DNA of 64,000 nt from Clostridium sp. UBA701 (GTDB lineage: Bacteria; Bacillota; Clostridia; Clostridiales; Clostridiaceae), in assembly GCA_002298125.1 (NCBI GenBank), contig DBMJ01000016.1:1-64000 (forward strand). Direction: 5' to 3'. A program made the translations under genes and the position numbers. Positions 46,128 through 61,310 of the stretch are shown piece after piece (the first letter of the stretch is position 1; each line of letters starts with the position of its first letter). The notes beneath the pieces are model-generated. The model did not search any database and was not told the DNA's origin. It worked only from the letters and a program-made list of their open reading frames with translations.

Positions 46128-49067
46128 ATGGATAAGATAATATATTTTTTGCCACTGTATTCAGATAATAGGGAGCAGCTTATAGATAAGTGCTGCAAGC
46201 TTCAGAATAAAGGACAGAATTTTTTATACATACTGCCCTCAAGAGGGGCTTTGTCCTCAGTAAGACAGAGCTTTTTAGATAAAAGAGGGGGACTTATTAA
46301 CAGCTCCATTATAATGTTTGATGAGCTAGAGAGACTTTTATGCAGGGAAGTCCTAGCTGAGAGCAGGATAATAAATTCCAGGGTGAAGGAGGAGCTTCTT
46401 CAAGAGAGTGTTGAAAGAAATAGAGACAAGCTCTTATATTTTAAAAAACTAAGCAGCAGTATGGGCTTTATAAGAGAGCTGTCCTCTCTTATCTCTCGCA
46501 TGAAAAGGGAGTGCAAAACTTGGGAGGAGCTTATTATTCTCTCAAGCAGCTATGCCAATTCTCCTCTTAGTAAAAAGCTTCAGGACATAGCAATGCTTTA
46601 TAGGGCTTATGAGGATATAAAAAAAGCTAAGAGACTTTACGATAGCGAAGATATTTCTAAGTTTGCAATAGAGGAGGCAGCCGCAAATCCTATATGGCAA
46701 AGCATAGATACTATAGTTATAGATGGCTTTATAAACATAGACAGGGTAAATAAAGAGCTTATAAAAACCATAGCTAAGCAGGATAGGGTTAGTATATACA
46801 TAAACCTTCCTTATAGAAATGAGCTTCTAGAGCCTTTTTTAAATAGTGAAATTAATGAGGAGCTATTATCTTTAGGCTTTCAGCTTGTAACTAATGAAAC
46901 ATCTCAGCATAAGGCAGCAGCCGCCTTAAAGGAGCTTTCTCTGGGGCTCTATAGTGGAGAAAAATGCAACTCCTCCTGTGATGGTATAGTGCTTAGAAGC
47001 TTTCCCTGTGTGGAAGCTGAGGTGAGAGAGGCTGCGCGCTGCATAAAGAAGAGTCTTATGGAGGGTATGGAACCATCTCATATAGCTCTATATGTAAATA
47101 ATCTAGACCTATATGAAAAATCCATAACCTCAATATTTAGTGAATATAATATACCTCATAATTTAGGTCAGCGGGAAAAGCTTATAAATGTGCGTTTCGT
47201 AAGAGAGCTTATAACTGACTGCACCTGGCTCCAAGAGGAGGACACTATAGAAAAGCATCTCTTAAAGCTTGAGGATAGGCTTAGGGAGGAAAGAGAAAAA
47301 TTAAATAATGCTGCAGAAGCAATGCTTTTGGGAAATTTGACTAACACTGAAGCCATTTACCTAAGAGGGTATAAGGGGCTGCAAGGCATAATTGCTCTTT
47401 GGAGGAGTCAAAATTACCTACTGCAGCAAGGAAATAAAATTATTTCCCGGGAAAAGTTTGTAGAACAGATGAGGCAGTGGGTGGAGGAGGCTACAGTTAC
47501 CCTTAAAAAAGGCTTTAATACTGGAGTAAATATTTTAAATACAGATCTTGCTAAGGGAATATATTTTAAGGAAGTGTATATTCTTGGCCTAAATGAGGGA
47601 GAGGTGCCTAAGGCTGCTGAAAAGTCTGTGATATTTAATGGTGAAGAGAAGAGAAGACTTATGGAGGAGGGCTTTACGCTAAGAAGCGGAAGCTATGAAC
47701 AGTATAGAGAAAAGATAAGATTCAATCTAGCATTAGCTTCAGCTGAAGAAAGGCTCTACCTAAGCTGTAGAAATGCAGGAGAAAAGGGAGAGTTTGCAAT
47801 ACCCTCCTCTTTTATGGAGGAGGTATGCTATCTAACCTCAAGGTCAATTGTAAAATATTCTATGAAGGACAGGTTTTATAAGAATTTTTCAGAGCTAATG
47901 AGCAGGAGAGAGCTTGAAGAAAGCAGTCTAGTAAGCTACTGTGAAGCTCTTTATGAGGGCAGTATTACTGTAGAGGATCTAAGCTGTGGACTTTCAAGCC
48001 TATGCTCAAAGGGAGACATCTCCTCCACTCTTGTGGAATATCACAGGGAGTATGAGGAGGACTTTGACAGCTATGAGGGAATGGTGGGAGGAGCTTTTCT
48101 ACCTCAGGTGAGCAGCTTTTTCACCTATAGCGGCAGCAGCTTCAACGGCTATTTTCAATGTCCCTTTAGATATATGCTGGACAATATTTTTAAGCTACAG
48201 GAGTTTGAAGAAGAGGAGGAGGAGTTCTCCGCCATAGAGCTTGGACAACTATACCATAGGGTACTTGCAGCCTATTACAAAGAGGCAGACTATTGGCATA
48301 GTGTAAATGAGAAGCTCCTAAGTGAAAAATATGATGAGGAATACAGCAAGCTAAGACCCTTAGAGCTGCCAAAGCTTGTACTTGATACCTTAAGGGAAAA
48401 ATATTATAAAATCCTTAAGGACTTTATAGCTGCAGACCTAACTAGGCTTTCGGGCTATGAAAAGCTTACAGGAAGGGTACTAAGACCCTATAGGCTTGAG
48501 TGGTCTCTTCAAAATTATGACTTTTTAGGCATTCCCTTAAAAGGTATAGTGGATAGAGTGGATTTAGAATATGAGAAGGTAGAGGGAGGTTTAAAGCCTA
48601 CAGGAGCTTATGTCATCTATGATTATAAGAGGAAGTCGAGCTCCTCCTCCCCTAAAAATCTCAAGGATATAGTGTCAGGCAGGGATTGTCAGCTTCCCAT
48701 TTACTACTACCTGGCAGAAGAGCAGCTTAAAAACATTCTTAAGCTAGAGAATATAAGGTGCATGGGGCTTTTATATATGTATGTGGAAAATTTGAATAAG
48801 ACTGCCCCCAAGGCTTCAGGGATACTTTTAAATGAAGATAAAAAGGCCTTAGGCTATTCAAGAAGTGAAGGGATAAGTACACCAGCCTTTAAGGTAGTAG
48901 TGCAGCAGGTTCAGGATTTGGTTAAAGAGGCTCTTACCAAAATTAAAAGCGGAAGCTTTAACTATAAGCCATACTGTTATCACAAAGAGAGCAGCTTTGC
49001 CTATCCATGCAGATATGGAAATCTATGCCGCTATAGCAAAAATAAAATACGAAGGGGAGGGATTTAA
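46128..49067 (+). CDS. rexB: helicase-nuclease subunit B, RexB/AddB type (inactive helicase-like N-terminus, C-terminal RecB-type nuclease with Fe-S Cys staple)
   Basis: 979 aa; N-terminus LYILPSRGALSS resembles RexB (no Walker A); nuclease motif GIVDRVD..YVIYDYK; Cys pattern C(FQCPF)...YCYHKESSFAYPCRYGNLC. Confidence 0.8.
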   Translation: MDKIIYFLPLYSDNREQLIDKCCKLQNKGQNFLYILPSRGALSSVRQSFLDKRGGLINSSIIMFDELERLLCREVLAESRIINSRVKEELLQESVERNRDKLLYFKKLSSSMGFIRELSSLISRMKRECKTWEELIILSSSYANSPLSKKLQDIAMLYRAYEDIKKAKRLYDSEDISKFAIEEAAANPIWQSIDTIVIDGFINIDRVNKELIKTIAKQDRVSIYINLPYRNELLEPFLNSEINEELLSLGFQLVTNETSQHKAAAALKELSLGLYSGEKCNSSCDGIVLRSFPCVEAEVREAARCIKKSLMEGMEPSHIALYVNNLDLYEKSITSIFSEYNIPHNLGQREKLINVRFVRELITDCTWLQEEDTIEKHLLKLEDRLREEREKLNNAAEAMLLGNLTNTEAIYLRGYKGLQGIIALWRSQNYLLQQGNKIISREKFVEQMRQWVEEATVTLKKGFNTGVNILNTDLAKGIYFKEVYILGLNEGEVPKAAEKSVIFNGEEKRRLMEEGFTLRSGSYEQYREKIRFNLALASAEERLYLSCRNAGEKGEFAIPSSFMEEVCYLTSRSIVKYSMKDRFYKNFSELMSRRELEESSLVSYCEALYEGSITVEDLSCGLSSLCSKGDISSTLVEYHREYEEDFDSYEGMVGGAFLPQVSSFFTYSGSSFNGYFQCPFRYMLDNIFKLQEFEEEEEEFSAIELGQLYHRVLAAYYKEADYWHSVNEKLLSEKYDEEYSKLRPLELPKLVLDTLREKYYKILKDFIAADLTRLSGYEKLTGRVLRPYRLEWSLQNYDFLGIPLKGIVDRVDLEYEKVEGGLKPTGAYVIYDYKRKSSSSSPKNLKDIVSGRDCQLPIYYYLAEEQLKNILKLENIRCMGLLYMYVENLNKTAPKASGILLNEDKKALGYSRSEGISTPAFKVVVQQVQDLVKEALTKIKSGSFNYKPYCYHKESSFAYPCRYGNLCRYSKNKIRRGGI

Positions 49068-49068
49068 T

Positions 49069-52000
49069 ATGGCCTTTCCATTAAATGATGAACAGCTTCA
49101 GGCACTAAATATAGAAGAAAACATTTCACTATCAGCAGGAGCAGGTTCAGGGAAAACCAGGGTGCTTACAGAGAGATATATAAAGCTTCTAGAGGAGGAC
49201 AGTGAGGCTGATATTCTAAACATAGTGGCCATAACCTTCACCAATAAGGCTGCCCTAGAGATGAAGGACAGGGTGAGAAAGGCTATCCTCGTAAAGCTTG
49301 AGGAGTCTAAGAGTGAGGAGAGAAAGCTTTGGCAGCAAAGACTAGATGCGCTTAGTGAAGCACATATTAATACCATCCACGGGTTCTGTGGAGAAATAAT
49401 AAGAGAGCAGGCAGAAGAGCTAAACATAAGCCCAAGCTACTCTATTATAGATGCTGTAGAAAAGGAGCTGCTGCTTAGAGAAATCTTCACTAAGGTGGTA
49501 GCGGAAAGTCTTATTAAGGAGGACTTTAAAGAGGCTGTGGCAGAAATGGTGGAGCTCTATGGAGGAGAGTACCTTCAAAGGAAGGGCAGCTGTAATATTT
49601 ATAAAGATCTTCATAGGCTTCGGGAAAAGCTTTTAGAGAGAGGTCAGCTTAACAAAGAGCTTTTAAAAGCAGTTCAGCCTGAAAGCATGGAGCATTTTGT
49701 AATTTATATTCTGCTTAAGGTAGAGGAGCGCTATACAAAGAGCAAGAGAGAAAAAGACCTAATGGACTTTAATGATATGGAGCTTTTGTGTTATTCTGCT
49801 ATGCAGATAAAGGACATTAAAGAATACTATAAAAATAGATATAAAAGATTTCTAGTAGATGAATTTCAGGATACCAATGAACTTCAAAAGAAGATATTAT
49901 TTTCCTTTATTGAGGATGAGGATGGAATGCCTATGGATAAACGCCTCTTTGTAGTAGGAGATGTAAAGCAGTCCATATACCGCTTCCGTGGAGCAGATAT
50001 GCAGGTGTTTAATAGGGTAAGGGCAGAGCTTCCTGAAAACAGCAGAAAAAGTCTTCATATCTGCTACAGATGCCACCCCTCTATTGTAAAGGGAGTAAAC
50101 CAAATATTTAAAAAGCTTATGGCAGGCTATGAAGAACTTCAATCTGAAAGCGTGGAAGAGGATAAAAGAATTACCCTGCTCACCTATGAGGAGGAAGCAG
50201 AGGAAAAAGCAGATATCTACAGTGGCATAAAGGAGCTATATAAAACAGAGGATGAAGAGCATATGGAGGAGCTTAAGCTCAAGCTTAAGACCTTTTTAGA
50301 GGATATTAAAAATACAAAGCCCACAGAAGCTAAGGAAGGAGAGGCAGTGTTAAAGGCTGTCTATCATCTTAGAAATTGCGGCTTAGCCTATAGAGATATG
50401 GCGGTGCTTGTACGAAGCCGCTCCTCCCTGGCTGTACTGGAGGAGACTTTTATCAAGTATAAAATACCTTACTGTATCATAGGAGGAAAGGGCTTTTACA
50501 ATAAACAGGAGGTAATAGATATATTAAATCTATATAAGCTATCCATAGGGGATACTATTTCTAACGCAGAGCTTATTAGTGTGCTTAGAAGCCCCTTGTT
50601 TTCCATATCTGATGCAGCCCTTCTAAGAGGCAGGGTAGAGGCCATAGAACAGAAGGATATGGAGTTTTTAGAGGCTTTGGATTTAGCCTCGGAAACCCTT
50701 GAAGAAGAGAAGGAAAAGATTAATGCTGCCATAGGGGTCATTAGAGATTTACGCAGGGAGAGTGCAAATTGCAGTACTGTGCAGCTTCTAAAGTATATCT
50801 ATGATAAGACAGGAGTATGGAATAGATATATCTCACTAGAGCAGGGACTTCAGAAATACAGAAATCTAGAACAGCTATTACAGTGTGCAGAGGAATTTGA
50901 TAATAGGAAGCTGTTTTCACCTCAGGAGTTTATGGAATATATGACTCTTATGGCGGAGTACAGCAAGGAAGATGGAGAAGCTGCCCTAGACACAGAGGAT
51001 TCAGAGGCAATTAAGGTAATGACCATTCATGCCTCAAAGGGGTTGGAGTTTAAGGGAGTTATAATGCCCTCTCTAAACAAGAATTTACTGTATAATATAA
51101 ACAATGGGAAAAACAATTTTCTATACCAGGAGGATAATATAATAGCCTTTGACCGTTCAGCTAAGCAGGATGAAGCTTCTGACTTTCAGACTGGCAAGGC
51201 TCAAGAGGTTGAAAAGGAACTGCAGGAAGCAGTAAGAGTTTTTTATGTGGCTGTAACTCGTGCCATAGAACAGGTGGTGCTCATAGCACAGAGAGATGAA
51301 AAGTTGGAGGAGAAGCTTCAAAATGAAGCCTCCCTTAAGCCTGAGGACATCTATGGAAGCTACTATGCACAGCTTCTTTATGCCATTAATAGTGCTGGGG
51401 ATATTCCTGGTTTTCAAAGCCTAAGCATAGATGAGGTAGAGCTTAGGGAAGAAGCAGCTAAGGAGTACTATTTGCCTCAGGAGGATATTATAGTGCCAGA
51501 AGGAGTTGATTATAACTGTGAGGTGGTGCCACGTATTTTTTCCTCTGCCAGCAGCTATATGAGCTATAAACGCTGCCCTCTGGAGTATTATCTTAGTCGT
51601 GAATTGGCCTTTGCCCTGGACTTTTTAGAGGACAACAATGGTGAAGAGGAAAAGGAAGCTATAGAGGAGAGAGAACAGTCTTATGAGGGACTTACGGCAA
51701 TTGAGAAGGGACACATTATCCACAGTGTGTTAGAGCAGCTTGCAGTTAAGCCTGAATTAAGGGAGGAGGAGCTTCAGGAGTTTATTATAAGAGCTTCAGA
51801 GGAGGAGCTTGGTTATGAAAGCTATAATGAAGATATAGCCTCTGAAATAAAGCCCTATATTGATAGCTTTGTGAAGCTTGAAAAAAGCAGCAGGTTTAGT
51901 GCATTTACTCCCCTTTCAATCTTGTGTGAGGCTCAGTATACCTTTGCTCCACTTGAGGATAGGAAGCTAATATTAACTGGTGCCATAGATCGCCTTAGGC

Positions 52001-52326
52001 TTTATGAAATGGATGGAAAACTTGTGGCGGTTATTACGGATTATAAGAGTAACAACCTAAGAGATAGAGAGGAAGCAGAAATCACTGCTAAAAAATATCT
52101 TCCACAGATGCTCTTATACGGCCTTGCAGTTAAGACACTGTTTTCACATAAGGGAAGAAGTGTGGATGAGATTATTCTGCAGCTTTATTTCTTGAAGCCT
52201 GGAGAGGAAATTAAATTGAATTTTGATGAAAAAGAAGCACTGGTGCTGGTTGATGAGATGGATAGGATATTTAAGTCCATGGCGTTAAATAAGATAGAGG
52301 ATTTACAAGTGACAAGTGACAAGTGA
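49069..52326 (+). CDS. rexA: helicase-nuclease subunit A, RexA/AddA type (UvrD-like SF1 helicase + C-terminal PD-(D/E)xK nuclease)
   Basis: Start at ATG 49069 with GGGGAGGG RBS (ORF track extends to 48997); Walker A AGAGSGKTRVL, UvrD motifs, C-terminal GAIDRL..ITDYK nuclease motif; the stop codon lies inside the heptamer repeat. Confidence 0.85.
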   Translation: MAFPLNDEQLQALNIEENISLSAGAGSGKTRVLTERYIKLLEEDSEADILNIVAITFTNKAALEMKDRVRKAILVKLEESKSEERKLWQQRLDALSEAHINTIHGFCGEIIREQAEELNISPSYSIIDAVEKELLLREIFTKVVAESLIKEDFKEAVAEMVELYGGEYLQRKGSCNIYKDLHRLREKLLERGQLNKELLKAVQPESMEHFVIYILLKVEERYTKSKREKDLMDFNDMELLCYSAMQIKDIKEYYKNRYKRFLVDEFQDTNELQKKILFSFIEDEDGMPMDKRLFVVGDVKQSIYRFRGADMQVFNRVRAELPENSRKSLHICYRCHPSIVKGVNQIFKKLMAGYEELQSESVEEDKRITLLTYEEEAEEKADIYSGIKELYKTEDEEHMEELKLKLKTFLEDIKNTKPTEAKEGEAVLKAVYHLRNCGLAYRDMAVLVRSRSSLAVLEETFIKYKIPYCIIGGKGFYNKQEVIDILNLYKLSIGDTISNAELISVLRSPLFSISDAALLRGRVEAIEQKDMEFLEALDLASETLEEEKEKINAAIGVIRDLRRESANCSTVQLLKYIYDKTGVWNRYISLEQGLQKYRNLEQLLQCAEEFDNRKLFSPQEFMEYMTLMAEYSKEDGEAALDTEDSEAIKVMTIHASKGLEFKGVIMPSLNKNLLYNINNGKNNFLYQEDNIIAFDRSAKQDEASDFQTGKAQEVEKELQEAVRVFYVAVTRAIEQVVLIAQRDEKLEEKLQNEASLKPEDIYGSYYAQLLYAINSAGDIPGFQSLSIDEVELREEAAKEYYLPQEDIIVPEGVDYNCEVVPRIFSSASSYMSYKRCPLEYYLSRELAFALDFLEDNNGEEEKEAIEEREQSYEGLTAIEKGHIIHSVLEQLAVKPELREEELQEFIIRASEEELGYESYNEDIASEIKPYIDSFVKLEKSSRFSAFTPLSILCEAQYTFAPLEDRKLILTGAIDRLRLYEMDGKLVAVITDYKSNNLRDREEAEITAKKYLPQMLLYGLAVKTLFSHKGRSVDEIILQLYFLKPGEEIKLNFDEKEALVLVDEMDRIFKSMALNKIEDLQVTSDK

Positions 52327-52838
52327 CAAGTGGCAAGTGGCAAGTGGCAAGTGACAAGTGGCAAGTGACAAGGGAGAAGGGACAAGTTACAAGTGACAAG
52401 TTAAAAGTGAAGAAGTGACAAGTTACAAGTGAAGAGGGAAGAGGGACAAGGGACAAGTGAGAAAGTGACAAGTGGGAAAGTGACAAGTGACAAGTTACAA
52501 GTGAAGAAGTGAAGAAGTGGAGAAGTGGCAAGTGACAAGTGACAAGTGAAGAGTGAAGAGTGAAGAAGTAAGAAGTTATGAAGTGACAAGTGACAAGTGA
52601 CAAGTGACAAGTGACAAGTTATGAAGTGACAAGTGACAAGTGACAAGTGGCAAGTGACAAGTGAGAAAGTGACAAGTGACAAGTGACAAGTGGCAAGTTG
52701 CAAGTTGCAAGTTAAAAGTGAAGAAGTGAAGAAGTGAAGAAGTGAAGAAGTAAGAAGTAAGAGGTAAGAAGGAAGAGGGAAAAGTTAAGAGGGAAAAGTT
52801 AAGAGGGAAAAGTTAATAGTTAAAAGTGACAAGTTGTG
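52305..52838. repeat. ~530-bp microsatellite of heptamer/octamer units (GACAAGT, GGCAAGT, GAAGAAGT, GAAGAGT, GGGAAAAGTTAAGAG x3), ~75 units
   Basis: seen directly: long runs gacaagtgacaagtgacaagt..., gaagaagtgaagaagt...; plus strand is almost devoid of C; minus strand open in all frames. Confidence 0.9.
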
Positions 52839-53153
52839 GGTTGTGCAAATAATTTTGTGTATTCTATTTCTATTGGCAAATAATTAGGATATCAAATTGT
52901 TTGACCGTAATGTTAAATTTTGTCGATAAATCTTTAGCTGCATCATTAATATTATAGTAGATTATTCTTACTGCTTAAGTTAATATACAACATCTTTACC
53001 ATTAACAGGATAGGCCAATGCTGAGGAGCAACCTGAGCGGTTACTGGAGTTCTCTGAATAGGAACGGATGGTCTTTTGATCATCCTTTTCTCGTTCCTGG
53101 GAGAACTAAAGCGATAAACCTCTGGGGTTTGGGGACAGAGTCCCCAAGTTATG

Positions 53154-53472
53154 CCTACTTTCTTAAGATATCTTCAAATAGGATATTGAGTTGACTTACT
53201 ACAAGATCCCAGTTTGAACACACTCTACTCCACTTGTTGCTAATCTTTTCAGTAGATAGATATAGCATCTTCATAAGACTCTCGTCATTAGGGAATATAA
53301 GCTTTGTCTTAGTAACCTTTCTAAATTGGCTATTAAGGCCTTCTATAGCATTTGTGGTATTATCCCGATATCGGTATAGTTATTTTTTTGGCATTAGAGG
53401 TATACATAATCGTACGAATATATTCACAATGGAGAATACTACCATAGAATTCTTGAGGAAAAGGTTTAGTAT
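53154..53472 (-). pseudogene. IS256-family transposase, 3'-terminal remnant (~105 codons, one frameshift)
   Basis: Minus-strand translation gives EYIRTIMYTSNAKK / YRYRDNTTNAIEGLNSQFRKVTKTKLIFPNDESLMKMLYLSTEKISNKWSRVCSNWDLVVSQLNILFEDILRK*, matching the conserved IS256 C-terminus (IYTTNAIE.LN..R...K....FP...L.K.LYL.....KW....W) as recalled; no N-terminal DDE region, no inverted repeats. Confidence 0.7.
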
Positions 53473-53482
53473 AAAGTAAAGG

Positions 53483-53592
53483 GCCTGTTTAGAGGATTTG
53501 CTCGCTAAACAGGCTCTGTTCTTTAACAGGCCATGCTCTCTAAACAAGCTCTGCACTCTAAACAAGCTCTGCTCTCTAAACAGGCACTGCTA
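53483..53592. repeat. 3' UTR element: three perfect + two degenerate 18-bp direct repeats (CTCTAAACAAGCTCTGCW) and a 10-bp-stem hairpin (GCCTGTTTAG/CTAAACAGGC)
   Basis: seen directly at 53538-53591 (3x18 bp) and 53483-53514 (hairpin); lies immediately 3' of the minus-strand small-protein gene stop, so the hairpin probably acts as its terminator. Confidence 0.6.
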
Positions 53593-53990
53593 ATACAAGG
53601 GGGCTTTGCGGTTTAATTCCATTTGATTTTTTCTGTGCTCTTGTTTTTCCTTGGTGCTTTCAAGGGTTAATTCGTCCATTCGGGAGGCATTGTGATCTAG
53701 GTAGTTGTTAGCGTAGGTGTAATTTTTCAGCAGGTTATCATTTTCATCCACCTGCTCATGGATACCATAGGCGATGATGTTTTTTAGGTTTGCAATTTCA
53801 GCTTTTCTCTCCTCTTGAATTTTTAAGGTATGCTTTACGTCATCAAGAGTAGATTTTGCCAGATTTTCTTCTAGATGTTTTTCTGTACGAGTATATTTTT
53901 CCACTACATCGATAAGCTGCTCAATTCTTCTAGCATTGGATTTTTTATGCTCCTTATAAGAATCAGGCTGCTCTTTGTCACCATTCATAT
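53590..53990 (-). CDS. small highly charged coiled-coil protein (possible spore-associated/Tlp-like small protein)
   Basis: Start chosen at ATG 53990 (MNGDKEQPDSYKEHKK...), with AGGAGG RBS 8 nt upstream; the ORF-track extension to 54099 is unsupported; Lys/Glu-rich, no family confidently recognised. Confidence 0.45.
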
Positions 53991-54055
53991 AAATCCTCCT
54001 TTGACCCACTGTACTGCTTAGATATATGAAAAAAAGTGAAGAATGAAAATAAATA

Positions 54056-54100
54056 GAGGGCTCACTTATATTTTTAGCATAAGGAGCCCTAAAATACATG
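54056..54100 (-). terminator. probable nagA terminator hairpin (AGGGCTC...GAGCCCT)
   Basis: 7-bp stem with A/T flanks downstream of nagA and of the 15-bp repeats. Confidence 0.4.
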
Positions 54101-54120
54101 GGAAATATTGTTTTTTCAAA

Positions 54121-54255
54121 TTATAAATTATAGCTTTATAAACTATATCTTTATAAACTGTTGCTTTACAAACTGTTGCTTTACAAACTATAGCTTTATA
54201 AGCTGTTGCTTTATAAACTATAACTTTATAAGCTTTCCATTTACAATAACAAGCT
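54121..54255. repeat. nine tandem copies of a 15-bp AT-rich unit (TTATAAACTATAGCT consensus)
   Basis: seen directly: ttataaattatagct ttataaactatatct ttataaactgttgct ttacaaactgttgct ttacaaactatagct ttataagctgttgct ttataaactataact ttataagctttccat ttacaataacaagct; overlaps last ~12 codons of nagA. Confidence 0.85.
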
Positions 54256-55351
54256 TAATGTTTATATCCTCATCAAAGAGCACTAAGTCTGCATCATAAC
54301 CCTCTGCTATCAGTCCCTTTTGGTTTTCTACTCCACAGTGTACTGCAGCATTGTAGGTAGCCATTTTAACCACCTCATAAAGAGGATAATTGGTATTTTT
54401 GTATACGTTGGAGATAGCTTTATCTAAAGTGAGAATGGAGCCTGCCAGTGAACCAGTAGCAATTCTTGCAGCACCTTCCGTTACAAATACGTCTTGACCG
54501 CCAAGGGAGTATTTGCCCTCACCTAAGGTACATGCCATCATGGCATCTGTAACCAATATGGTCTTATCAAGGCCTTTTTGCTTAAAGGCTACTCTAAGAG
54601 ATGGGTATGCTATATGAATGCCGTCTGCAATGGTCTCTGTGGTTATATCACTATCAAATATTGCACCTACCACTCCAGGCTTTCTATGATGAAGAGGAGT
54701 CATGGCATTAAATAAATGAGTGGAGTGGCTAACTCCCTTTGCTATTGCAGAAGAGGCTTCTTCGTAGGTAGCATTTGTATGTCCCATGGATACCACTACA
54801 CCAAGGGAATGGGCATATTCAATGAGTTCAAGTGCACCCTCTACCTCTGGAGCTAGGGTTATACAGCTAATATCCTCTATATGCTCCTTGGCAATATAGT
54901 CAAAGGTCTCCTTTGAGGGCTTTTCTACGTATTTAGGGTTTTGTGCACCTATCATATTGGGACTAATAAAGGGGCCTTCAAGGTGAAGTCCCAATATTTG
55001 AGCTCCTTCTGTACCCACCTTCTTAGCTTCTGCTGCTGCTTCTACAGAATTTTTAATATCCTCTAAGGCTACCGTCATAGTAGTTGGAAGAAAGGAAGTG
55101 GTACCGTGCTTTACAATGGCCTTTGAAATTTCATTTAATGCTTCATAGGTACCATCCATGGTATCATATCCTGCGGCTCCATGAATATGCACATCTATAA
55201 AGCCAGGAGAGAGATAATTACCTTGGCCGTCAATTATTTCTTCACCATATAAGTCTGTGGGATTAAGCTCTACTATCTTTCCATTTCTTACTCTAAGAGC
55301 TCCTTCTTCTATTCCATCCTTTAAAATCAGTTTACAATTAGTTATTATCAT
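54218..55351 (-). CDS. nagA: N-acetylglucosamine-6-phosphate deacetylase
   Basis: 377 aa; GFIDVHIHGAAG metal-binding motif and overall NagA pattern. Confidence 0.85.
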   Translation of the reverse strand: MIITNCKLILKDGIEEGALRVRNGKIVELNPTDLYGEEIIDGQGNYLSPGFIDVHIHGAAGYDTMDGTYEALNEISKAIVKHGTTSFLPTTMTVALEDIKNSVEAAAEAKKVGTEGAQILGLHLEGPFISPNMIGAQNPKYVEKPSKETFDYIAKEHIEDISCITLAPEVEGALELIEYAHSLGVVVSMGHTNATYEEASSAIAKGVSHSTHLFNAMTPLHHRKPGVVGAIFDSDITTETIADGIHIAYPSLRVAFKQKGLDKTILVTDAMMACTLGEGKYSLGGQDVFVTEGAARIATGSLAGSILTLDKAISNVYKNTNYPLYEVVKMATYNAAVHCGVENQKGLIAEGYDADLVLFDEDINIKLVIVNGKLIKL

Positions 55352-55523
55352 AATATGTGGGAAAAACCCGCACCTCCTTTAATTAAACCTGATGTCTAAT
55401 TAAATTATACTCCTATTTTTATATAGATGTCTAGACCAGTTGTTTACAATAAAAATGCAAAGTGTTATAATTATTTTAAAATAATATGTAATTTGCACCG
55501 GTATATTGCTGGGAGGGAAGATT

Positions 55524-56246
55524 ATGATTGATAAATACAGTGCTATTCCCGTGTATTTTCAAATTAAAGAGGATATAAAAAATAAAATTCTTCAAGGTCA
55601 TTGGGGTCCTGGACAATGTATAGATAGTGAAAGAGAAATTTCAGAGCATTACGGTGTCAGCCGAATGACTGTAAGACAGGCTATAGGTGAGCTGGTGAAG
55701 GAAGGAATACTTCTTCGAGAAAAGGGAAGAGGAACCTTTGTATGTGAAACTAGGATAACTCAGCACAACATCATGAGCTTTACGGAAATGACTGAGAAAA
55801 GCGGGCTTACGGCAGAAACAGTACTGCTTGATGTGTGCGCCTTAGAAGGGGACGAGGAGCTAGCAGAGCTCTTTGGAACAAAAGAGCTTCTTAGGATTCA
55901 GAGACTAAGGAAGGCAGATGATACAGTCATAGGCTTTGAGCAGGTGTATATACCAGAAAAAACACTAGGAGATACTAAGAAAGAGGAACTACAAGGCTCA
56001 CTCTTTAAGCTTTTAGAGGAAAGAGGAAGATTAATTGCAACCTCCCATGCCTTTATTAAGGCTGTGGAAACTCCAGCCTCTCTTTTGGAGATTTTTAGTG
56101 CTGAGGAAGTAAGTGCACTGCTTATGACCAACAGCTCCTATTATGATGAGGGCGGAGAGCTTATTTTTGTAGAGGAATCCTACTATAATGGTGAAAAATT
56201 TACCTTGGAGGTTAATATAGCAAAAAAGCAGGGAATGATACTTTAA
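55524..56246 (+). CDS. GntR-family transcriptional regulator with UTRA effector domain (NagR/YvoA-like)
   Basis: HTH SEREISEHYGVSRMTVRQAIGELVKEG; ATG 55524 with GGGAGGG RBS (the ORF track starts at TTG 55506). Confidence 0.8.
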   Translation: MIDKYSAIPVYFQIKEDIKNKILQGHWGPGQCIDSEREISEHYGVSRMTVRQAIGELVKEGILLREKGRGTFVCETRITQHNIMSFTEMTEKSGLTAETVLLDVCALEGDEELAELFGTKELLRIQRLRKADDTVIGFEQVYIPEKTLGDTKKEELQGSLFKLLEERGRLIATSHAFIKAVETPASLLEIFSAEEVSALLMTNSSYYDEGGELIFVEESYYNGEKFTLEVNIAKKQGMIL

Positions 56247-61008: not shown

Positions 61009-61310
61009 CATATCTCCTCCATACATATGTTAATAAATTATTAATAAATAACAATTGTCCGTTATTTTTATTATAATACAGCTTAGCTCATACTTCAATT
61101 CTTTAGTAGTATTACTATTAGCTCATAATTCAATTATTTAGTAGTATTACTATTAGCGCATAATTCAAATATTTATTAGTATTACTATATGTAAAATCAT
61201 CTTACCTTATATTTCCCGTTATAAAAGTAAAAAAATTCATACTACTTCACAATTTTAGTGTTATAATTTTACCATAATGCATAATTAAAACCCGCGGGGA
61301 GGAATTAACT

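Follow-up and report, generated by a model that had tools for sequence, protein, structure and literature searches.

A very long degenerate heptanucleotide array at the 3′ end of a bacterial addA gene

Among long SSRs, heptamers make up the most abundant class, according to the account that a later paper gives of that work (Mrazek, 2007, via PMC4679880). In Xanthomonas and Nostoc, GGGAATC and GGGGA(C/T)T repeats occupy the coding strand of intergenic DNA, 0–50 bp from the preceding stop codon, at ~90–170 copies per genome; these G4-forming arrays of 39–179 nt lie between the same genes in related species, where their position is conserved and their length and sequence vary, and some of them form inverted pairs (Rehm et al., 2015, PMC4692102). 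The TAACTGA repeats of Beggiatoaceae, Cyanobacteria, and Bacteroidetes consist of one heptamer in tandem, found in distant phyla, with stops in all forward frames and an open reverse strand. Most sets hold 2–6 copies immediately upstream of start codons, where translational control has been suggested, while a few long arrays reach at most 43 copies (MacGregor, 2015, PMC4679880). Contingency SSRs are pure and short tracts of tandem units prone to slippage, located in a promoter or 5′ coding region, where unit number sets expression; heptanucleotide promoter SSRs drive phase variation of HMW1A (hmw1A) in Haemophilus influenzae (PMC8262952).

The LSSR/STRR class, which includes the STRR heptamers of the cyanobacterium Calothrix PCC 7601, is made of head-to-tail 7-nt units that extend beyond chance length in non-coding DNA, in many arrays dispersed through each genome; numerous bacteria contain more of them than expected. 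Here we describe a heptanucleotide array at the 3′ end of addA in a Clostridia chromosome, within a window of 64,000 nt (the whole stretch of DNA that was analysed). It represents a known kind of bacterial microsatellite at an unusually large size and gives no sign of a function of its own. We read it as a very long degenerate heptanucleotide SSR of LSSR/STRR-like class, most likely without dedicated function, and give this reading a probability of roughly 0.6.

Architecture of the heptanucleotide array

The array spans positions 52305–52838 on the + strand, 534 nt that parse into ~74 tandem units, an exact length that rests on the source assembly, the short-read contigs covering the flanks and edge with the middle outside them. 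Tandem Repeats Finder reports a period-7 array at 52305–52721 (58.1 copies, 82% matches, score 415), followed beyond 52721 by 8-nt and 14-nt variant units up to ~52835. In the unit parse, 48 units are 7 nt long, 16 are 8 nt, and 4 are 6 nt, and they include TGACAAG (25 times), TGGCAAG (7), and TGAAGAAG (7), among others. A 43-nt higher-order unit, composed of one 8-mer and five 7-mers, is present three times at 52577–52705 on the + strand (period-43 row of Tandem Repeats Finder), a sign of block duplication, and from 52581 the repeat is perfect over 39 nt, its longest such run. The 3′ part (52716–52816, + strand) is degenerate, with four copies of TGAAGAAG, TAAGAAG-type units, and three copies of the 14-nt unit GAAAAGTTAAGAGG (period-8 and period-14 rows; unit parse), after which one canonical unit closes the array. 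The purine-rich strand, with the consensus (G)TGACAA(G), is the addA sense strand; its 534 nt hold 232 A, 178 G, 83 T, and 41 C (77% purine). With 15–19 stops per frame on the + strand and 2–5 on the − strand, and with 6-, 7-, and 8-nt units mixed, the array has no conserved reading frame and is non-coding. A three-unit pattern allowing ≤3 mismatches gave 29 matches, all of them within the array and on the + strand, and none in shuffled sequence. In the remaining 63.5 kb of the window, no heptamer is repeated three or more times in tandem, and GTGACAA does not occur even twice in a row.

These features adjust the picture drawn by the first-pass annotation. The long tandem array of GACAAGT and variants that it described is confirmed, at ~74 parsed units. 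Its start lies ~20 nt 5′ of the addA stop codon rather than inside it; C makes up 7.7% of a + strand said to have almost none; and TGACA, attributed to every unit, is found in 25 of ~74. The − strand, described as open in all three frames, is indeed the one with fewer stops, but each of its frames is interrupted, although ORFs of 66–110 aa do occur on it. For annotation this is a warning that the addA stop codon and the opposite-strand LVTCHLS-type ORFs are products of the repeat.

How does the array compare with the described systems? It shares with long heptanucleotide SSRs the 7-nt period, the non-coding character, polymorphism at a fixed position, placement at a stop codon, and the position of the repeat on the preceding gene's coding strand. 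STRR2 has the unit TT(G/T)GTCA, one base from the array's CTTGTCA. In contrast to the dispersed STRR arrays, the same heptamer is not scattered through the 64-kb window, where this is the sole heptamer array, and it replaces the end of a coding region and reaches ~74 units (534 bp). It is longer than the largest TAACTGA sets (43 copies, PMC4679880), and unlike them it lies downstream of and inside a gene end. It is also three times longer than the GGGAATC-type arrays (179 nt, PMC4692102), and a G-quadruplex array was rejected because only 9 GGG runs are scattered through it.

The end of addA and its missing cysteine tail

The array adjoins a pair of helicase-nuclease subunit genes in which addB (46128–49067, + strand, 979 aa; Pfam ADDB_N) is followed by addA (49069–52326, + strand, 1085 aa; Pfam UvrD-helicase, UvrD_C, PDDEXK_1). 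AddB has a full PD-(D/E)XK domain (PDDEXK_1 profile positions 3–247 of 247) and retains its C-terminal cysteines, its translation containing C...C-x5-C. AddA is otherwise intact, with an AddA (3U44_A) as its best solved relative and a nearest homologue among 5.8 billion proteins that is 37% identical, but it lacks the conserved C-terminal CxxCx5C tail. The homologues indicate that the lineage stands isolated within Clostridia. In an alignment of 58 homologues, the three C-terminal Cys columns are 93–97% conserved and are missing here, while the upstream Cys is retained; along the 247 positions of the PDDEXK_1 profile, the match extends to 202, and those of five homologues reach 246. Because the addA ORF stops inside the array, at a TGA within the third unit, its last six codons (QVTSDK) are repeat sequence. 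The array provides the stop codon, and the predicted AddA is left without a tail found in nearly all homologues. The AddB nuclease domain ligates an Fe-S cluster through cysteines, and by likeness to it the cysteines lost from AddA may have been ligands of such a cluster.

The array sits in the former 3′ coding end of addA, a placement that is new here. Where this AddA has QVTS, the homologue P0005 has KVTSENCSWC, so that the first array unit aligns with native residues. At the other end, the last canonical unit and a possible remnant of the addA tail lie at 52826–52858 (+ strand), where GTG ACA AGT TGT GGG TTG TGC AAA TAA TTT TGT translates as V T S C G L C K * F C. Appending the post-array codons raises the homologue-tail profile score from 76.6 to 80.4, a level equalled by 60 of 3911 random window segments (p ~0.015). 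This is suggestive only of CGLCK*FC being what is left of the lost tail, and the local duplication GTTGTGG/GTTGTGC, which raises the chance of Cys codons, accounts for part of the match. The locus would be a natural example of a bacterial microsatellite that arose where a coding region ends, probably within it, and grew to satellite size, taking a conserved cysteine tail off a double-strand-break repair enzyme. It offers a test of how far AddA-type nucleases depend on the C-terminal cysteine motif.

Beyond the array, which lies between convergent genes, a terminator-like hairpin with a T-tract (53066–53095, + strand, the addA strand; consensus scan) may be the original addA terminator, such sites being no more frequent than shuffles lead one to expect. 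An IS256-family (Mutator-type) transposase C-terminal fragment of 74 codons (53155–53379, − strand; Pfam PF00872, profile 333–378 of 379, E 4.8e-9) follows ~320 bp past the array. Its blastn matches are exclusively annotated IS256-family transposases, and a BLAST against plasmids for the element end matched the transposase core only. Next come an 18-nt tandem repeat of 5.2 copies ending in an inverted repeat (53499–53591, − strand; Tandem Repeats Finder), which directly follows a conserved hypothetical small ORF of 132 aa convergent with addA (53590–53988, − strand), and a nagA-like amidohydrolase (54218–55351, − strand; Pfam Amidohydro_1), whose cluster members and their contigs served as the anchor for finding relatives. 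Homologues of the small ORF number 56 in Clostridia, and all of them lack a Pfam domain. A tie between it and the array was rejected: homologues of ~65% identity have different neighbours and no array or repeats. Pfam scans of the flanking ORFs from 34.3 to 63.4 kb identified neighbours of an ordinary housekeeping kind, namely AddAB, NagA/NagB/GntR genes, PTS, a peptidase, and MoxR, with no ParA, ParB, RHH, or Rep protein among them and none within ~10 kb of the array.

Relatives and a probable route to the array

An independent short-read contig from the same strain (L002) reproduces the addA/array junction and ends at window position 52336, while a second (L001) breaks on the other side at 53113. 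The array explains why the short-read assemblies of this organism break here. A metagenome contig from a relative (L003), whose flanks are ~96% identical to those of the window, carries an array in the corresponding position. The homologous array measures ≥323 bp there and contains the same rare unit types, with no colinearity: identity between the two arrays is 0.573, against 0.576 ± 0.017 for a unit-shuffled control. The segment 52839–53479, which holds the IS256 fragment, is missing from L003 (blastn against the window stops at 53479) and is replaced by an unrelated 47 bp. At the level of sequence, this comparison demonstrates that the DNA beside the array was rearranged, with the IS256 fragment in one lineage, and that the array itself was reorganised between close relatives. 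With the relative's array scrambled and the IS256 fragment missing there, the array is fast-evolving and not an IS scar. A search with a lineage-specific array marker returned two unrelated contigs only, the junction pattern was absent from metagenome contigs, and no relative free of the array came to light, which leaves the ancestral state unobserved.

How could such a tract have arisen? We infer that the array originated from a short proto-repeat, CAAGTGACAAGT (Q-V-T-S), in the last codons of addA, which would have been duplicated by replication slippage. Because (GTGACAA)n has a TGA in every frame, the first extra units would have ended the ORF, and selection would no longer have acted on the codons beyond. 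Continued slippage, together with unequal duplication of blocks, could then have expanded the tract to ~0.5 kb, with point mutations and 8-nt and 14-nt variant units acquired during growth. The locus may serve as a test case for the start and expansion of heptanucleotide repeats, the preference of bacteria for a 7-nt period being still unexplained. Neutrality of the array is likewise our deduction. A 0.3–0.5 kb array has been kept in two lineages ~4% apart, however, and selection could be the cause.

Alternative readings and heptamer arrays in other genomes

The strongest of the rival accounts, though still unlikely, is that selection maintains the array as a cis-element, a multivalent platform with a reading step of 7 nt, either as DNA or as an RNA sponge in the addA 3′ UTR. 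Omega/ParG-type ribbon-helix-helix proteins bind DNA heptad arrays, the omega heptad being WATCACW, and HutP recognises NAG-N4 spacing. By analogy, the unit read as TGTCACT would be identical to the omega heptad at 6 of 7 positions and (AAG-N4)n would fit the HutP spacing. Binding of heptamer repeats by CspB, mentioned in PMC4679880, could provide a precedent on the RNA side. The array keeps its position in L003, and the GTGACAA heptamer recurs in many phyla. Against such a platform, no par, rep, or hutP-like gene lies nearby, the partition and replication genes that adjoin omega/ParG-type heptad arrays being absent; its units are degenerate (25 canonical of ~74), their order is not preserved in the relative, the rest of the window shows no enrichment of the motif, arrays of arbitrary control heptamers are about as frequent, and homologues of the small ORF in more distant relatives occur without an array. 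Other functional candidates were also rejected. There is no −35/−10 pair in the tract, which removes a promoter array. For a structured RNA, a search of 50000–56000 with Rfam covariance models gave only a chance snoRNA match (E 0.45) outside the array, and the 534-nt fold centroids of −9 and −6 kcal/mol leave both strands unstructured. As for a Chi-like or dispersed motif, the seven unit rotations occur 0–6 times per strand outside the array (mean 3.9), with no strand skew. The first-pass annotation had noted −35-like motifs in the units and offered a protein-binding array as one possibility; no promoter-like site goes with the former, and the latter finds neither partition or replication genes within ~10 kb nor enrichment of unit words elsewhere in the window.

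Ranking behind the platform, and doubtful, is an origin as the surviving and expanded arm of a former inverted heptamer hairpin, acting like a bidirectional terminator between convergent genes. GTGACAA clusters in other genomes do form inverted pairs in 50 of 149 cases, nearly all with the purine-rich arm first and often between convergent genes, whose gaps they fill (L016, L020, L070, L098, and L115 are examples), and the array has the same polarity relative to addA as those pairs. However, no reverse-complement arm lies within ~100 bp, nor is there a TTGTCAC-sense arm anywhere in the window or at the distal end of the L003 array; the array RNA has no stable fold, and the missing AddA tail argues for an origin in coding sequence and not in a 3′ UTR hairpin. 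A contingency locus, in which gain or loss of units would switch expression of addA or a neighbour, is very improbable. In its favour, units of 7 nt do not divide into whole codons, relatives carry different versions of the array, and the heptanucleotide tract of Haemophilus HMW1A would be a precedent by analogy (PMC8262952). In contrast to such loci, the array occupies the 3′ end of addA, in the gap between convergent genes, has no promoter-like site within it, and is impure (82% matches, longest perfect run 39 nt). Moreover, (GTGACAA)3 has a TGA in all three + frames, so that within any 21 nt AddA ends after a few codons whatever the unit number, and its product is constant. The anatomy of the array largely refutes this reading, and the frame switching implied by the first-pass annotation finds no support; the suggestion of a hypermutable slippage locus is weakly borne out by the shuffled L003 array and the threefold 43-nt unit, but not as a switch. 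Least credible of all is that assembly produced the array, or its length, as an artefact, or that the neighbouring IS256 element left it as a scar. Short-read contigs do break on both sides (52336 and 53113) and the IS256 fragment is 320 bp away, but the addA/array junction is reproduced by an independent short-read assembly, and the homologous array of L003 (≥323 bp) occupies this locus with no IS fragment. The scar that the first-pass annotation had considered is refuted by this relative.

The preferred reading, a very long SSR without dedicated function, can be set against heptamer arrays in other genomes. At least 119 stretches of species genomes contain three tandem GTGACAA units, where ~0.3 would be expected, and the arrays, spread over more than 100 species from many phyla, usually have 3–10 units and often form inverted pairs after stop codons. 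Of 193 arms, 119 follow a gene that reads into the purine-rich strand, with a stop codon within or abutting the arm in 45. Among the 212 arms sampled, the longest has 31 units, less than half of the ~74 in the window. As the array exceeds all of these arms and is the sole heptamer array in the window, a genome-wide slippage tendency would be insufficient by itself. In viral contigs, GTGACAA is found in 16 stretches, same-composition control heptamers in 4 and 24, and TAACTGA in 107; with controls about as frequent, the idea of GTGACAA as a special, horizontally spreading element had no evidence behind it and was rejected.

Two bolder possibilities, which taken together we consider improbable, would give the array wider meaning. 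It could be a selected multivalent DNA or 3′-UTR RNA platform for a putative protein that reads in 7-nt steps, or the product of an undescribed, active mechanism that generates 7-nt repeats. If so, the cell might tolerate an AddA without its Fe-S tail, or even take advantage of it. Such a repeat-generating mechanism, if true, would also explain the recurrence of heptamer arrays, often in the form of inverted pairs that abut stop codons and have the purine arm first, across Acidobacteriota, Bacteroidota, Clostridia, Cyanobacteria, and Proteobacteria.

Anatomy and setting of the array

On the plus strand of the window, Tandem Repeats Finder placed a period-7 array at 52305-52721 (58.1 copies, 82% matches, score 415), which extends to about 52835 as 8-nt and 14-nt variants and in which a 43-nt higher-order period was also found. 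When the whole tract (52305-52838) was parsed into units, about 74 were obtained, including 48 of 7 nt, 16 of 8 nt and four of 6 nt, with TGACAAG (25), TGGCAAG (7) and TGAAGAAG (7) the most frequent; its 3′ end consists of three copies of GAAAAGTTAAGAGG, then one final canonical unit (GTGACAA). A triplet of canonical units, allowed at most three mismatches, matched 29 times in the window, always on the plus strand and within the tract, and never in shuffled sequence. Together, these analyses confirm the large tandem heptamer array that the first-pass annotation had described at the end of addA, while some of its details need adjustment. TGACA, assigned there to every unit, was counted in 25 of the roughly 74, and "almost no C" is a slight overstatement for a strand with 7.7% C (A232, G178, T83, C41; 77% purine). 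The minus strand, described as open with artefactual ORFs, does hold ORFs of 66-110 aa, but each frame contains two to five stops. No second array of similar kind was found in the remainder of the 64-kb window.

The junction between addA and the array is not an assembly artefact, because it is also present in L002 (Logan SRR5320859), an independent contig built from short reads of the same strain, which runs through addB and addA and 32 nt into the array before breaking; the internal length is as given by the source assembly. Pfam assigns addB (46128-49067) and, downstream of it, addA (49069-52326), and the best solved relative of the AddA family is 3U44. On the far side of the array lie a conserved hypothetical ORF of 132 aa (53590-53988, minus strand) and a nagA-like gene, both convergent with addA, then a GntR regulator and nagB. 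The wider surroundings are ordinary housekeeping genes (PTS components, an M16 peptidase, a MoxR ATPase); genes for partition, replication or RNA-binding regulators are absent. The source organism belongs to an isolated Clostridia lineage; the closest AddA in a database of 5.8 billion proteins is only 37% identical.

Loss of the AddA cysteine tail

The main new point, and the one consequence of the array that was unexpected, is that AddA has lost its conserved cysteine tail. The protein ends in ...IEDLQVTSDK*, whose final six codons, like the TGA stop, are repeat sequence. In an alignment of 58 full-length AddA homologues, four cysteine columns are 93-97% conserved, one where the nuclease domain begins and three forming a C-terminal CxxCx5C; the window AddA keeps the first and lacks all three of the others. 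Consistent with this, its Pfam PDDEXK_1 match ends at profile position 202/247, while five homologues reach 246/247 and the window AddB 247/247. One cysteine plus CxxCx5C is the pattern of the AddB Fe-S cluster, and by likeness to the AddB nuclease domain we take the four AddA cysteines to be probable Fe-S cluster ligands. The homologues P0002-P0059 of the clostridial group carry one upstream cysteine and CxxCx5C in the nuclease domain; to our knowledge, B. subtilis AddA lacks the four-cysteine pattern.

From the last canonical unit on, the DNA reads GTG ACA AGT TGT GGG TTG TGC AAA TAA TTT TGT (V T S C G L C K * F C). One homologue has KVTSENCSWCNYKEACL in the aligned position, and the TAA falls where the homologues carry a conserved tyrosine. 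A profile of homologue tails scored 80.4 bits with 14 post-array codons appended to ...QVTS and 76.6 without them, and 60 of 3911 random window segments did equally well (p ~0.015). Because the post-array codons fit homologue tails in this way, it is suggested, though not proven, that the first unit (V-T-S) is native addA coding sequence and that the array grew out of an intragenic proto-repeat, CAAGTGACAAGT, leaving the last codons of the gene stranded downstream. Any such expansion ends the reading frame within a few codons, because (GTGACAA)3 has TGA in all three frames, and unit number is therefore unable to alter the AddA protein any further.

Relatives and the wider heptanucleotide class

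Two further samples were obtained by exact-protein look-up of NagA cluster members. One (L004, 99.75% identical) ends short of the array region. The other is L003, a metagenome contig of 7 kb whose flank matches the window at about 96% identity over 5.7 kb. Along it come nagA, the small ORF with its 18-nt repeats, 47 unrelated bp and then a heptamer array, oriented as in the window, that extends over 323 bp or more and runs off the contig end. The unit repertoire of the L003 array is that of the window array, including the rare types TTATGAAG, TAAGAAG, GGACAAG and TGAAGAAG; identity between the two arrays is 0.573, no better than for the unit-shuffled L003 array (0.576 ± 0.017). Window segment 52839-53479 is entirely missing from L003, and within it lies the IS256-family transposase fragment (53155-53379; Pfam PF00872, E 4.8e-9). 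From this comparison we conclude that the array is older than the split between the two lineages and has been retained at the locus, that sequence turnover is much quicker inside it than in its flanks, and that the adjoining DNA has been rearranged. Distant homologues of the small ORF (~65% identity) lie in another gene context, with no repeats.

An exact scan for three canonical units, with one genome per species, gave at least 119 stretches against about 0.3 expected by chance. Matches listed came from Acidobacteriota (many Pyrinomonadaceae), Bacteroidota, Clostridia, Cyanobacteria, Proteobacteria, Planctomycetota and others, and their loci also hold many unrelated heptamer arrays (Tandem Repeats Finder). 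Among the matches listed, the median GTGACAA arm (a single run of units) is 4 units long and the longest has 31. Inverted pairs account for 50 of the 149 clusters; they often occupy the gap between convergent genes, and the purine-rich arm comes first in all but L060 and L094 (48/50). The upstream gene reads into the purine-rich strand for 119 of the 193 arms in this set, 45 of which have a stop codon in or abutting the arm, as at addA. Viral contigs yielded 16 stretches of GTGACAA, 4 and 24 of two same-composition permutations and 107 of TAACTGA; in these control scans GTGACAA does not stand out among heptamers.

In many bacteria, heptanucleotides are described as outnumbering every other class of long SSR, with a proposed link to polymerase slippage (Mrazek 2007, as cited in PMC4679880), and TAACTGA arrays reach 43 copies (PMC4679880). 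The GGGAATC and GGGGAYT repeats of Xanthomonas and Nostoc span 39-179 nt, at times as inverted pairs, lie mostly 0-50 bp past stop codons on the coding strand, and vary in length and sequence but keep the same flanking genes (PMC4692102). The window tract has the defining features of this class and is an exceptionally large, newly found example, differing in being more than twice the longest arm among the matches listed, single-armed, and solitary in an otherwise repeat-poor 64 kb.

In many phyla, inverted pairs of the form (GTGACAA)n-loop-(TTGTCAC)n fill the intergenic space and often abut both stop codons (L016 4255-4460; L020 2615-2855; L049 1279-1481; L070 3094-3305; L098 5330-5529; L115 1127-1339), and many unrelated heptamer arrays at such loci are likewise inverted pairs. 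Two loci of the Clostridia MAG CAZTUB01 (L026 656-796, L065 7879-8000) are nested composite hairpins, with outer (CGTGAAC)n and inner (GTGACAA)n arms mirrored on the opposite side. The longest other GTGACAA array among the matches listed, in Shewanella metallivivens (L010 2516-2753; ~34 units, mixed with GTAACAA and GTAGCAA variants), is single-armed like that of the window. A low-GC JGI metagenome contig (Ga0114932_10072156; L133 530-640) has a repeat of ~15-17-nt period built of CACTTGTCACTTCATAA, apparently interrupting a coding region; it has the TTATGAAGTGACAAG motif in common with the window array and is otherwise unrelated.

Origin of the array and other repeats of the window

We favor, at a probability of roughly 0.6, a slippage-born and essentially neutral satellite. 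The repeat would have arisen in the last codons of addA, truncating the protein, and grown by unit slippage and block duplication, with a new addA stop codon, a long unstructured 3′ region and local rearrangement as side effects. The least unlikely alternative, a selected binding platform that would act on DNA or RNA, drew no support from any test run. The tract has no Rfam match and no internal sigma-70-like promoter (the single match combines the last unit with the flanking AATAAT), and both strands of the 534 nt fold with essentially no structure (centroids -9 and -6 kcal/mol), the plus-strand z-score of -2.8 reflecting many two-base-pair helices. That the tract is instead the decayed arm of an inverted heptamer hairpin, a form common in the class, is also unlikely, with no partner arm in either the window or the L003 lineage. 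A contingency locus is very improbable, being contradicted by the anatomy of the array. An assembly artefact or IS scar is hardly tenable given the independent contigs; the first-pass interpretation, supported in part, fails in its proposal of an IS256 scar, as L003 has the array without the IS256-bearing segment. An array-free relative confirming birth inside coding sequence, or a protein that reads the heptad, would raise the significance of the locus.

Two further candidates were rejected. Elsewhere in the window, counts of the seven unit rotations range from 0 to 6 per strand, against a mean of 3.9, with neither enrichment nor strand bias, which speaks against a dispersed recognition word, Chi-like or otherwise. 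With only nine GGG runs, scattered through it, the tract does not qualify as a G-quadruplex array.

Between array and IS256 fragment lie ~260 bp of unassigned sequence (52853-53113) with a terminator-like hairpin (53066-53095) and no Rfam, Pfam or BLAST match; 53113 is precisely where L001, a short-read contig of the same strain, breaks. The small ORF is followed immediately by an 18-nt tandem repeat (53499-53591, 5.2 copies), which ends in an inverted repeat (CCTGTTTAG...CTAAACAGG) and recurs in L003 with differences. Between the small ORF and the nagA 3′ end, a 15-nt repeat (TTATAAACTATAGCT, 7.4 copies, 54121-54231) carries repeated promoter-like TTGTAA-18-TATAGT sites on the minus strand and is variable in copy number, with only ~4 copies in L003. 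Tandem repeats also occur upstream of the MoxR-like gene (61083-61188; 35 nt x 3.0, 92% matches) and inside the ORF at 401-2524 (746-889; 33 nt x 4.4).
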